From: Thermoanaerobaculia bacterium
Lineage (GTDB): Bacteria; Acidobacteriota; Thermoanaerobaculia; Gp7-AA8
Direction: 5' to 3'
DNA: 56,106 nt
Assembly: GCA_035255945.1 (NCBI GenBank)
Contig: DATEZA010000280.1
Coordinates: forward strand, 1-56,106
A program made the position numbers and the translations under genes. Positions 33,349-37,222 of this stretch are shown here, piece by piece. Below the pieces are notes generated by a model, which worked only from the letters and a program-made list of their open reading frames with translations, was not told the DNA's origin and did not search any database. Position 1 is the first letter of the stretch. The number at the start of each line of letters is the position of its first letter.

Positions 33349-34320
33349 ATGTTGTACCGCGGTATCACTCTGTTTCTTCTCGCCCTGCTCCTCGCGCCGT
33401 GTCTCCTCGCGCAGGACCAGTCCTCATCACAGCATCTCGACGAGAACGTCTCCGTCGGATACGTGATGATCCCGTTCACGGTCCTCGGCAGGCACAGCGC
33501 CCCGATCACCGATCTTGACGCGCGCGAGGTCTCGCTGCTCGTCGACGACGTGCCGGTCAAGAGCGACATGTTCGAGAAGTCGATGGATGCGCCGGTGTCA
33601 TTCACGATCCTCGTCGACGGCTCCGGCTCGATGGCGCTCTCCGGCAAGATGGAAGCGGCCCGAGCGGCGGTCGAGGCGCTGATCGCGGGCCGCAAGCCGG
33701 GCGACGACTTCTCGCTCTTCGTCTTCGATGCGACCGAGGCGCACGAGATCGTCCCGTTCACCGACAACCCTCAGACAATTCTGACGGCGATGTACGGCAT
33801 CAAGCCGTGGGGCAAGACCGCGTTCTTCGATGCGGTCTCGACCATGCCGGAGAAGAGCCGGCTTGGGCGTAACCCTACACGGGCCATCATTTTGCTGAGT
33901 GACGGCATCGATAATGCTTCGACGCTCACCCGTGAGCAGCTCTCGAGGACTCTCGAGGGTCTCGGTATCCCGATCTATTCGCTCGGGTTGCGTGAAGCGG
34001 CCGAGGCGAAGCTGATGACGGGACAGACGGCGGAAGCGTCGTCGGACATCGCCCTGCTCGAGGATGTGGCGACGCAAACGGGTGGCCGTCTCTTCCTCGG
34101 CAACCGTCCGGAGCAGCTCGGAAAGGCAGTCGACCGTATCGAAAACGATCTGCGGGCCCAGTATCTGATGGGCTTTACTCCCACTGGTAAAGGTGCTGTA
34201 AAGTACCGCCGCATTTCGCTGAAGGTCGCGGGGCGAGTTCAGGCAGTCCGTGTACGCGCGGGGTATCGCGGCACCGAGCCCCCGGTTCTTACTAAAGCGA
34301 ACGAAAGGAAAAGAAGTTGA
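33349..34320 (+). CDS. VWA-domain protein (Acidobacteria-type)
   Basis: Signal peptide; VDGSGSM MIDAS, TAFFDAV, IILLSDGID, IYSLG, TGGRLF, QYLMGF. Confidence 0.9.
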   Translation: MLYRGITLFLLALLLAPCLLAQDQSSSQHLDENVSVGYVMIPFTVLGRHSAPITDLDAREVSLLVDDVPVKSDMFEKSMDAPVSFTILVDGSGSMALSGKMEAARAAVEALIAGRKPGDDFSLFVFDATEAHEIVPFTDNPQTILTAMYGIKPWGKTAFFDAVSTMPEKSRLGRNPTRAIILLSDGIDNASTLTREQLSRTLEGLGIPIYSLGLREAAEAKLMTGQTAEASSDIALLEDVATQTGGRLFLGNRPEQLGKAVDRIENDLRAQYLMGFTPTGKGAVKYRRISLKVAGRVQAVRVRAGYRGTEPPVLTKANERKRS

Positions 34321-34967
34321 TGAGAATCGCAGCCAAGGTATCCCGTGTCCTAACGGTGTCCTTCGTGGCCGGAGCACTCGCAGCCGGATGCGCCACGAAC
34401 AAGGACGTCGACCGGAAGATCGCGGAAGCGACCTCCCAGTCCCAGGCGACCACCAATCAGAAGATCGAGTCGGTGGCGTCGCAGGTGGAGCAGGTTCAGC
34501 AGCATCAGAAAGAGCAGGACGCGCAGCTCGCGACCCTGAGTCAGGAAGCGAAGGACGCGCTCAAGCGCGCCGAAGACGCAGGCATCCTCGCCAAAGGCGC
34601 CGGCAAGGTCGTCTTCGAGCAGACCTTCTCGGACGATAAGGTCAAGTTCAAGAGCGGCAAGTACGACCTCAGCAAGGACGCGAAAGCAGCTCTCGACGAC
34701 CTCGGCAACAAGCTGAAGGGGATGGTCGAGAAGCAGTACTTCGTCGAGATCCAGGGTCATACGGATGACACCGGCGGCACGCGCTACAACGACGAGCTCG
34801 GCCAGCGCCGCGCCGACGAAGTGCGCCGCTACCTCTCGCGCCAGTACGGCGTTCCTCTGAACCGCATGTCGACGATTTCGTACGGCGACACGCTGCCGGT
34901 CGCGCCGAACAAGACCCGCGCCGGACGCTCGCAGAACCGCCGCGTCGTGGTGGTCGTGCTCGAGTAG
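34320..34967 (+). CDS. OmpA/Pal-family lipoprotein
   Basis: LAAG-C lipobox, coiled coil, EIQGHTD, N..LGQRRA..V, SYG..P, NRRV. Confidence 0.93.
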   Translation: MRIAAKVSRVLTVSFVAGALAAGCATNKDVDRKIAEATSQSQATTNQKIESVASQVEQVQQHQKEQDAQLATLSQEAKDALKRAEDAGILAKGAGKVVFEQTFSDDKVKFKSGKYDLSKDAKAALDDLGNKLKGMVEKQYFVEIQGHTDDTGGTRYNDELGQRRADEVRRYLSRQYGVPLNRMSTISYGDTLPVAPNKTRAGRSQNRRVVVVVLE

Positions 34968-34973
34968 TTTCTC

Positions 34974-35330
34974 CTACGCAGCGTTTGCACTCGGGCCGGC
35001 GTTCGCGCCGGCCTTTTTTGTTGCGAGCCCGAGGAGAAGGCCGACGGTGGCGGTCGCGAAAAGCGTGATGTGCACGGGACCGCCTTGCACGGCCCGAATG
35101 CCATAGACGAGATGCGCGACGAACTCCACTGCGACCGGCGCGAGCATCACCGAGAGGATCGCGAACGCGATCATGGTCTTCATTCGATACGCGAGAACCA
35201 GCGCCGCCACAAAGATCACAATATCGACGATCGCGCCCATGATCCAGTCAGTGTGCAGGTGAAGTTTCGTCGTTATGAAAATGAGCGATGCCGTAATGGC
35301 CAGCGGGATCAGATTCCGGATCATTCGCAT
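34974..35330 (-). CDS. Small 4-TM membrane protein (118 aa), candidate bacteriocin immunity factor
   Basis: GGAG RBS overlapping the upstream TAG; four hydrophobic segments; non-host codon usage. Confidence 0.7.
   Translation of the reverse strand: MRMIRNLIPLAITASLIFITTKLHLHTDWIMGAIVDIVIFVAALVLAYRMKTMIAFAILSVMLAPVAVEFVAHLVYGIRAVQGGPVHITLFATATVGLLLGLATKKAGANAGPSANAA
34994..35019 (+). terminator. Intrinsic terminator of the OmpA gene
   Basis: GGCCGGC-gttcgc-GCCGGCC followed by TTTTTT. Confidence 0.85.
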
Positions 35331-35340
35331 GATTGAGCTC

Positions 35341-35969
35341 CTACTCGCAGGCGCCATTACAAGGTTTTTCCCAGAACGTTCCGCAGCCGTCAGGCGTAAA
35401 CACACAGCGGAATACGCGCCTGCAAACTTCAGGACATGTCGGCCAGATGCAACACCAGTCGGAGTCCGTGCTGCACTCGCATTCAAATACGGTCGAGATT
35501 GCATGAAACTTCGTATTCATCGACGGCGCGAGCTGCAGCGCCCCCAAGCGCTGAAATACGAACTTGTATGTGACCGGATCAAATGCGGCTTTGCCATCAG
35601 CATCAGTCGCAGCAGCGGCTGATTCACCCGGGAATCCCACTGTGCGTCGGAGGGGCTTACGTCCATGATCCCGCTGTACAGCAGACCCACGGCCTGAAAA
35701 ATCACGGCACGCTGGCCGGCTGTCAATTCGGGATGTTCAGCAAGATATCGCTCGAGTTGCAGAAGCCACAAATCCGTTTTCAACTGCGGCGTGAAAGCCG
35801 CGAATCGATGTTTCACGCTGGCTACGTCACGCGCAAGCAGCTCATCGTACTTGGACTCCACGGTTGCCCGATCCCCGTGAAGAAGAAATGGCGAATGCCC
35901 CTGCCCACATAAGGTCGATGCGAAGCCTGAAACAATTGCGATCGCAAGACACAGTCGGGAAAACCTCAT
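35341..35969 (-). pseudogene. Fulvocin C-related bacteriocin precursor, split by a 1-nt frameshift near 35598 (real or sequencing error)
   Basis: Signal peptide and helical pro-region (KTDLWLLQL..L....ELTAGQRAVI) in ORF 35517-35978; Cys-rich tail CECSTDSDWC...CVFTPDGCGTFWEKPCNGAC in ORF 35341-35640; AAGGTG RBS before ATG 35969. Confidence 0.85.
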
Positions 35970-36011
35970 ACTAGACACCTTTCCGTTACTATTTCCGGCA
36001 TGACCTACGTC

Positions 36012-36040
36012 AACATGGCGTGTATTGAGCCGCCTGTCAA
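36012..36040 (-). promoter_or_regulatory. Putative sigma70 promoter of the bacteriocin cassette
   Basis: TTGACA, 17 nt, CATGTT on the minus strand, ~40 nt upstream of the start codon. Confidence 0.4.
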
Positions 36041-36105
36041 TGGATTGGATGTCGGTTTATGCTGTCGCAAAATGCGCAAACTGCTCGTTTTCGTGTTCGC
36101 CACAG

Positions 36106-36475
36106 ACCGGCTTCTACAGCGATCCGTATTCCGACTACGGCCGGCTGCAGAGCGACATGGTCCGCGCCATCCGCCTCGTCGTCGACACCGGCATCCACGC
36201 GAAGAAGTGGACTCGTCAACAAGTTGTCGATTACTTCCACGCGCATTCATCGACTGACGAGCCGACGGTGCAGATCGAGACCGATCGCTACATCGCGTGG
36301 CCTGGGCAGGCGCTCGGCTACAAAGTCGGCCAGCTCGAGATCCTGCGGCTGCGCGCGAAAGCGGAGAAGGAGCTCGGGCCGAAGTTCGACCTCAAAGAGT
36401 TTCACGATGTGGTGATCGGCGCGGGCTCGATTCCGCTCGATGTGCTCGCGCAGCGCGTCGACAACTGGATCAAGA
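36106..36475 (+). pseudogene. DUF885-family C-terminal remnant
   Basis: GFYSDPYSDYGRL...RAIRLVVDTGIH..KWTRQQ, ETDRYIAWPGQALGYKVGQL, FDLKEFHD, G.IPLDVL; no start, and no stop before it runs into xth. Confidence 0.85.
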
Positions 36476-37222
36476 CTACGAAAACGTCGCCACCACCGGC
36501 GCGTGATCGCTCGTGCCGGTTTCGCGCAGCGACGGACACGACACCGCGCGCGATGCGAGCGATTGCGATGCGAGCACGTAATCGAGGCGCCAGCCGATGT
36601 TGCGCTGGCGCATGTTCCGCCACGGCGCCCACCACGTGTAGTAATCGTCCGCGCCGGGATAGAGCCTGCGGCCGACATCGTCGAGTCCCTGCGCGATCAG
36701 TTTCTCCAGCAGGTCGCGCTCTTCCTGCCGCTGTCCGATGATGTTCGGCTTGCGCTCCTTCGGATGCACGTCCATGTCGGTGCGCGCGATGTTCATGTCG
36801 CCGCAGAGCACGAGCTTCGTCCCGTCCTTCTGCACGTCGGCGGCGTAATCGATCAACTCGTTCAGGAACGCGATCTTCGCCGCGTAATCCTTGCCGCCGT
36901 TCGGGACGTACACCGATGCGAATACCGTGTCGCCCACGCGCGCCTGCACGATGCGGGTCTCGTTGTCGAAGTGCGGATGCGAGAACTCCGGCGGCGTCTG
37001 TGCGGAGTCGAGCCGGATGTGCAGACCGACGCCCGAATATGCAGCGGCGCCATGCCAGTAGCACTTGAAGCCTTCGAGATCGCAGATGTTTGCAGGGATT
37101 TGCGCGGGTGATGCCTTCAATTCCTGCAGGCAGATCACATCCGGCTGTTCGCTCTGCACGAATGCTGCAAATTGCTCGTGTCGTGCGCGAATGCCGTTGA
37201 CGTTCCAGGTAGCGACTTTCAT
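36476..37222 (-). CDS. xth: Exodeoxyribonuclease III / AP endonuclease
   Basis: ATWNVNGIR, CLQELK, YSGV, SVYVPNG, GDMN, WRLDY, SDHAPV. Confidence 0.96.
   Translation of the reverse strand: MKVATWNVNGIRARHEQFAAFVQSEQPDVICLQELKASPAQIPANICDLEGFKCYWHGAAAYSGVGLHIRLDSAQTPPEFSHPHFDNETRIVQARVGDTVFASVYVPNGGKDYAAKIAFLNELIDYAADVQKDGTKLVLCGDMNIARTDMDVHPKERKPNIIGQRQEERDLLEKLIAQGLDDVGRRLYPGADDYYTWWAPWRNMRQRNIGWRLDYVLASQSLASRAVSCPSLRETGTSDHAPVVATFS

Follow-up and report, generated by a model that had tools for sequence, protein, structure and literature searches.

In the window (the whole stretch of DNA analysed, 56,106 nucleotides), a cassette of approximately 1.05 kb lies between the convergent genes OmpA (34317-34967, plus strand) and xth (36476-37222, minus strand). 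On its minus strand, two ORFs overlap in different frames, namely, 35517-35978 (153 aa) and 35341-35640 (99 aa). Joined from the ATG at 35969, these frames give a fulvocin-family precursor of 209 aa, in agreement with the protein of about that length that the original prediction had assembled from them. Immediately downstream of this toxin gene, and translationally coupled to it, lies the gene of a small membrane protein, hereafter the partner. The features of both genes are as follows:

35978-35984, minus strand: ribosome-binding site GGAAAGG of the toxin gene, 8 nt ahead of the ATG at 35969, read from the sequence.
35604-35969, minus strand: 5' part of the toxin gene (frame A), signal peptide and helical N-domain, ending ...QPLLRL; matches positions 4-43 of the NF033852 profile and aligns without gaps with the homologues P0001-3.
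35904-35969, minus strand: Sec-type signal peptide, residues 1-22 (MRFSRLCLAIAIVSGFASTLCG/Q), recognised by inspection.
35603-35604, minus strand: frameshift site with one G missing; ancestral CTG GAT has become CTG AT, and the deletion makes a (CTGATG)x2 repeat.
35341-35604, minus strand: 3' part of the toxin gene (frame B), comprising the rest of the N-domain, the linker and the Cys-rich domain and closing with the TAG stop at 35341-35343; matches NF033852 positions 66-150, with 50.9 bits alone.
35344-35484, minus strand: putative mature peptide, a 47-aa, 10-Cys fulvocin-like domain (ECECSTDSDWCC...CNGACE), 44% identical to P01547 (pairwise E 2e-8).
35338-35341, minus strand: ribosome-binding site GGAG of the partner, overlapping the toxin TAG stop, 7 nt ahead of the ATG at 35330, read from the sequence.
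34974-35330, minus strand: partner, a candidate immunity protein, intact, 118 aa; four membrane helices in the AlphaFold model (mean pLDDT 69).

That the window gene belongs to the fulvocin C family is established at the level of sequence because of its profile score, its identity to the purified peptide and its alignment with the Myxococcus fulvus precursor. First, the read-through protein scores 85.2 bits (E 7.7e-24) against NF033852, 'bacteriocin fulvocin C-related protein', whose curated cut-off is 35 bits, and a scan of the whole genome gave the same result; this is the profile check by which the gene had been expected to prove a fulvocin relative. Second, the fulvocin C pattern put forward by the original prediction, CxCSTxSDxC...CxxTPxGCGTxW...CNG, was correct, since an exact look-up in UniProt identified the 45-aa sequence as P01547, the entry to which the window tail is 44% identical over 45 residues. 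Third, the read-through protein is 29% identical over 170 aa (E 2e-21) to the M. fulvus precursor. It also retains all ten family-invariant residues, and the invariant Cys and the CG motif are all present; it has three intact homologues (P0001-3) of 207-210 aa at 40-54% identity. A Pfam search with the precursor gave no match.

The longer, precursor-like homologues mentioned in the original prediction do exist. P01547 clusters with Myxococcus proteins of 196-202 aa called 'bacteriocin fulvocin C-related protein' (e.g. MCK8504122.1 and WP_223748309.1), and it corresponds to their C-terminal 45 residues, after ...AAGNK. Therefore, purified fulvocin C is the tail cut from a precursor of about 200 aa. 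The genomic M. fulvus precursor (P0189) ends ...GWVYACNGDCFY, and the protein sequence of 1981 (P01547) ends ...GWVYCACNGNFY; the published fulvocin C sequence was probably misread at its final residues. The original work on this bacteriocin is said to be that of Hirsch in 1977 and of Tsai and Hirsch in 1981, and we know of no structure, target, processing step or immunity mechanism for the family.

The window protein shares its architecture with fulvocin C and the NF033852 family: a signal peptide, then a helical N-domain carrying the motif LW...H...HP(E/D)L...Q, then a variable linker and finally, at the C-terminus, the Cys-rich peptide, in which the motifs CxCSTxSDxC, TPxGCGTxW and CNG are also shared. 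The signal peptide is composed of MRFSR, a 12-residue hydrophobic core and ..LCG/Q, which by inspection supports the Sec-type signal previously proposed; the junction x-(G/A)/Q is common to the homologues, and Q23 is invariant across the clade. The predicted helical pro-region is likewise borne out by an AlphaFold model of P0001 (54% identical), computed with 29 family sequences, in which residues ~30-140 form a six-helix N-domain with pLDDT of 88-96, whereas the Cys-rich tail is of low confidence (pLDDT <40). A PDB fold search with the precursor model returned nothing significant (best E 1.6), and a PDB sequence search with the Cys-rich tail had no match.

Unlike fulvocin C of M. fulvus, the window gene is frameshifted and its host is an acidobacterium, as had been thought probable; a neighbouring VWA gene matches the acidobacterial model TIGR03436, and NCBI assigns homologues to Thermoanaerobaculia MAGs. 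The tail also differs. The sequence ECECSTDSDWCCIWPTCPEVCRRVFRCVFTPDGCGTFWEKPCNGACE is present letter for letter as originally given, and it carries ten Cys instead of eight, with one more C following WC, another within PTCP and an insertion of four residues. Both the additional Cys pair, in comparison with the 8-Cys core of the family, and the insertion, in comparison with P01547, are thus as predicted. However, although the 10-Cys pattern is real, it is not special to the window gene. An exhaustive profile search (E <= 1e-3) among 1.84 billion proteins yielded 1,384 family representatives at 50% identity, and in a sample of 172 members there were 8 Cys in 147 and 10 Cys in 18 (about 10%), approximately 11 of these 18 with the WCC motif. 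The extra Cys pair, therefore, marks a recurrent subclade. In one relative from a metagenome (L043), neither the second Cys of WCC nor the Cys of PTCP is present, and because both are missing together, this single case suggests that these two residues pair with each other to form a fifth disulfide.

Of 61 relatives, 7 have a match to NF033852, neither congener among them. Within the taxonomic family of the host, a profile of the clade finds members in 28 of the 124 genomes, spread over 9 genera of 40 and frequently in multiple copies. Close relatives of the 10-Cys clade were also sought in two scans of genome contigs and one of metagenomes, which gave nothing or only two distant loci. The host genome itself harbours a second fulvocin-family gene on another contig (G000:C330, L001 1306-1950), which is intact and codes for 214 aa with 8 Cys (NF033852, 63.5 bits). 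This paralogue has no membrane partner; a DinB-like gene lies convergent to it, followed by the gene of a collagen-repeat membrane protein. As a separate observation, some 25 family representatives (among P0050-P0184) have lengths of 300-370 aa and two separate matches to the profile, which suggests tandem duplication of the N-domain or fused precursors.

The toxin gene of the window, with one G missing at 35603/35604, has no uninterrupted reading frame. The join was placed at ...QPLLRL/DADGKAAFDP by alignment with the intact homologues, which is gapless if the frame is changed there. At the DNA level, the site reads CGG CTG GAT GCC GAT in the homologous cassette of a JGI contig (L004) versus CGA CTG AT GCT GAT in the window. 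Eight contigs from other assemblies or runs, located through the exact partner and exact xth proteins, agree with the window at 100% throughout the part of 34974-36500 (1527 bp) that they have in common with it, the site included. These come from one NCBI MAG assembly, two JGI metagenomes and five Logan assemblies (SRR3954449, SRR3954450, SRR3954453, SRR3954454 and SRR8489912). Moreover, the intact 209/212-aa protein is absent among 15 billion catalogued proteins, where the truncated 150-aa product is present. From the eight identical contigs and the absence of the intact protein it follows, as judged from assembled contigs, that the frame break is a real pseudogene lesion, fixed in the sampled population. 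The lesion appears recent, because both halves are otherwise open and the family-invariant residues are all retained. The working antimicrobial that had been envisaged for this genome is, therefore, contradicted by a fixed 1-bp deletion.

An assembly or sequencing error, leaving the gene intact and functional in the organism, might be suspected in a genome that is an 85%-complete MAG in 360 contigs. This is extremely improbable, given the agreement across the site of the NCBI, JGI and Logan contigs, which derive from several runs; given that the change is from GG to G, with no long homopolymer; and given that gene calls at nine or more contigs report an antisense ORF or the truncated product, never the intact protein.

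A diverged relative from the soil of another run (P0030, from a protein-level (SRC) assembly of SRR5436305), 71% identical to the 3' ORF, starts with MGF... at the same place as this ORF, and its own C-terminus is also broken. Its gene may be interrupted at the corresponding position, in which case an older split that is tolerated would be indicated.

Alternatively, the break could be bypassed, by programmed -1 ribosomal frameshifting or by transcriptional slippage, so that the full-length precursor is made at some level. The two halves are fully open and conserved, the required shift is indeed -1, and P0030, from another soil, starts where the 3' ORF starts; P0030 is, however, a read-level protein assembly with a broken C-terminus. 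At the junction itself, CUG CGA CUG AUG CUG AUG G, there is neither a slippery heptamer X XXY YYZ nor a homopolymer run, and the intact homologues are all single-frame at this point, which makes such a bypass very improbable. We therefore retain the reading of an ordinary member of an already named family that has recently been inactivated.

What is new at this locus is the unannotated four-helix partner, together with a population pattern in which the toxin is lost and the partner kept. The partner protein has no match in Pfam or NCBIfam, and a PDB fold search with its model gave nothing significant (best E 1.1). Its family amounts to 12 clusters at 90% identity, and its pairing with the toxin is conserved. 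First, all three close toxin homologues have a partner homologue (31-53% identity) immediately downstream. Second, in two genomes from the same taxonomic family (L047 and L056), other 10-Cys fulvocin-like genes are succeeded by more distant partner homologues, one of which is also located behind a 222-aa gene on an unrelated contig. In all, the toxin-partner pair is present in at least eight other contexts, namely, L004, L005, L006, L040/41, L047, L056 and L012, and a Logan contig. Third, at L012 (G004:C14:~277.1-278.5 kb) the fulvocin gene directly upstream of an intact partner homologue is broken into three frames, in which the signal peptide, the N-domain motif and pieces of the C-terminal CG...C are still recognisable. 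Finally, in the close relatives L038, L039 and L042 the partner is an orphan, separated by 35-54 bp from the start of a complete DUF885 gene.

The partner is devoid of Cys. Between its helices 3 and 4 it has a conserved loop, YGxxxVQGGxxH, which is predicted from the positive-inside rule to face the periplasm. We considered E69, H73 and H87 as a catalytic or metal site and rejected this, as distant homologues replace E69 and H73.

Other loci of the family have a different neighbour, or none. A non-homologous four-helix protein of 128-146 aa is encoded 4-10 bp downstream of 8-Cys fulvocin-like genes (L007-L009, L053, L054 and L060), and it looks like a second candidate immunity family; homology between the 118-aa and 128-aa types was rejected on an hhalign probability of 0.4%. 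At L064 there is a four-helix ORF similar to the 128-146-aa type, with no Cys-rich ORF called beside it. The authentic fulvocin C locus of Myxococcus differs from the window in that it has no four-helix partner of either kind, and a ceramidase-family gene lies downstream.

Bacteriocins accompanied by small membrane immunity proteins are well known, for instance the immunity proteins of pore-forming colicins and the immunity genes of class II bacteriocins. Such cassettes resemble the window in having a toxin gene followed by a co-transcribed gene for a membrane protein of ~110-130 aa with 3-4 helices, and also in their highly polymorphic alleles and in the orphan immunity genes of non-producers. 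They differ in that the window partner is unlike any solved structure and its immunity role is deduced from linkage only. It is on this linkage that the partner is probably an immunity protein, the role that fits it best because of its conserved association with the toxin gene, its fast divergence and its retention after toxin loss. Nevertheless, because partners differ or are absent at other loci of the family, this role is not universal and could be other than immunity.

The borders of the cassette and its putative promoter include the following features:

36106-36480, plus strand: DUF885 remnant, the last ~120 residues (Pfam profile positions 414-532 of 532, E 1e-54).
36012-36040, minus strand: promoter-like element, TTGACA (36040-36035), 17-nt spacer and CATGTT (36017-36012), of putative function.
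34993-35014, plus strand: OmpA terminator hairpin, from a terminator scan; it falls within the final codons of the partner gene, and the partner tail ..KKAGANAGP.. is the hairpin read as its reverse complement.

Upstream of the toxin gene, TTGACA-N17-xATxTT is kept in the window, L004, L005 and L006, and because it is conserved in all four cassettes, the mobile unit seems to comprise promoter, toxin and partner. A generic promoter scan did not call the element at 36012-36040, whose -10 hexamer matches at 3 of 6 positions only. At the other end, the tail ..KKAGANAGP.. occurs only in partner alleles of the OmpA/xth locus that directly adjoin OmpA.

The low-GC insert that had been proposed stands, in view of its base composition, the empty site of a congener and the truncated DUF885 gene adjoining it. 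The cassette is the 1-kb stretch of lowest G+C in the window (0.548 versus a mean of 0.632, sd 0.024), and the counts given earlier, 88/180 at 35881-36060 and 41/60 at 36301-36360, are exact. Its GC3 is 0.62 versus 0.76-0.86 in the neighbouring genes, and the homologous L004 cassette shows the same contrast. In the congener G002, the spacer between OmpA and xth is just 76 bp long and contains a hairpin, with flanks that are 79-80% identical in DNA, which makes this an empty site. Neither in the cassette nor beside it did we find a transposase, an integrase or flanking repeats, the last of these without a dedicated search.

In the window, the cassette replaces the 5' three-quarters of the DUF885 gene. 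DNA homology to the close relative L038, whose DUF885 gene at the same place is full-length, breaks off at 35171 within the partner gene and is found again from 36109, where the DUF885 remnant lies. The ORF of this remnant (36025-36741, plus strand) overruns the usual end of DUF885 by ~260 bp, antisense into xth. In L038 the ends of DUF885 and xth are ~930 bp apart, with two called ORFs in between (of 114 and 181 aa, neither matching Pfam), and the window lacks all of this; it seems that the DUF885 stop was lost in a second deletion. The xth gene of L038, a JGI relative, is called in two pieces (532-1314, 190 + 63 aa), which suggests a frameshift or an assembly error in that contig.

Other relatives hold still other contents at the OmpA/xth site, namely, a full DUF885 gene and an SGNH-type gene in G004, which belongs to another genus, and a 169-aa secreted ORF in G006. 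The L004 cassette occupies this same site, and identity to the window is 53-81% for the flank proteins and 47-61% for those of the cassette. In genomes whose OmpA is 90-97% identical to that of the window, the partner is merely 47-71% identical, and the toxin gene is present in L040/41 but absent in L038, L039 and L042. Because the same locus holds diverged alleles, orphan partners or no cassette among relatives, the comparison of these sequences identifies the OmpA/xth site as a polymorphic hotspot of long standing, and not as the target of a single recent import. Of the horizontal acquisition put forward by the original prediction, the insertion thus stands, whereas a recent, one-off import does not.

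The same observations bear on whether the family is antibacterial here at all. The Cys-knot peptide could instead be a signal or structural molecule, and the partner its receptor, exporter or maturation factor. Consistent with this, the literature searched documents antibacterial activity for fulvocin C alone (work of 1977-1981), with otherwise passing mentions; partners vary between clades; and the N-domain is well folded while having no PDB match. We consider such a role unlikely. The window protein has direct sequence homology to a purified bacteriocin, and the distribution of the clade, in 28 of 124 genomes of the taxonomic family, is patchy. Furthermore, alleles are strongly diverged between conserved flanks and the toxin is repeatedly lost with the partner kept, as is typical of toxin-immunity systems, and the partner has neither Cys nor any invariant catalytic-type residue across distant homologues.

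We thus favour, with a probability of roughly 0.78, a two-gene cassette composed of a fulvocin-family precursor killed by a one-base deletion and an intact membrane partner that is probably its immunity protein. By analogy with M. fulvus, the ancestral precursor would have left the cytoplasm through Sec and undergone oxidation in the periplasm, and its Cys-rich tail would have been cut off as an antibacterial peptide, as in the 196-aa M. fulvus precursor, which is cut after ...GNK. This peptide of about 47 aa would have five predicted disulfides, compared with four in fulvocin C. The deletion at 35603/35604 breaks the frame before the last helices and the toxin domain, so that the cell can make only a 150-aa truncated N-domain protein and the toxin is dead. 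The partner would most likely still act at the inner membrane as an immunity protein, and the strain would be an immune non-producer. Here the antibacterial activity, the processing site and the disulfide pattern, like the role of the partner, are what we infer for the intact system.

A broader and more tentative proposal, to which we give slightly less than even odds, is that in these uncultured soil Acidobacteriota the OmpA/xth intergenic site is a long-lived polymorphic toxin-immunity hotspot; that the 118-aa protein founds a new and unannotated immunity family specific to the five-disulfide (WCC) clade; that strains repeatedly become immune non-producers, or 'cheaters', by deletion or frameshift of the toxin gene; and that the frameshifted genotype is the form found across the soil assemblies examined.

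The sequence of fulvocin C was reportedly determined in 1981, and little further work has been devoted to it. For its family, this locus shows that the mature bacteriocin derives from the C-terminus of a precursor of ~200 aa with a confidently folded helical N-domain, and that one clade, with a predicted fifth disulfide, travels with a small four-helix membrane protein. This partner is the obvious candidate for immunity and hence would provide a handle on the target of the toxin. Producers, probable immune non-producers, orphan partners and empty sites, all between the same flanks, would amount to a textbook toxin-immunity dynamic in uncultured bacteria.
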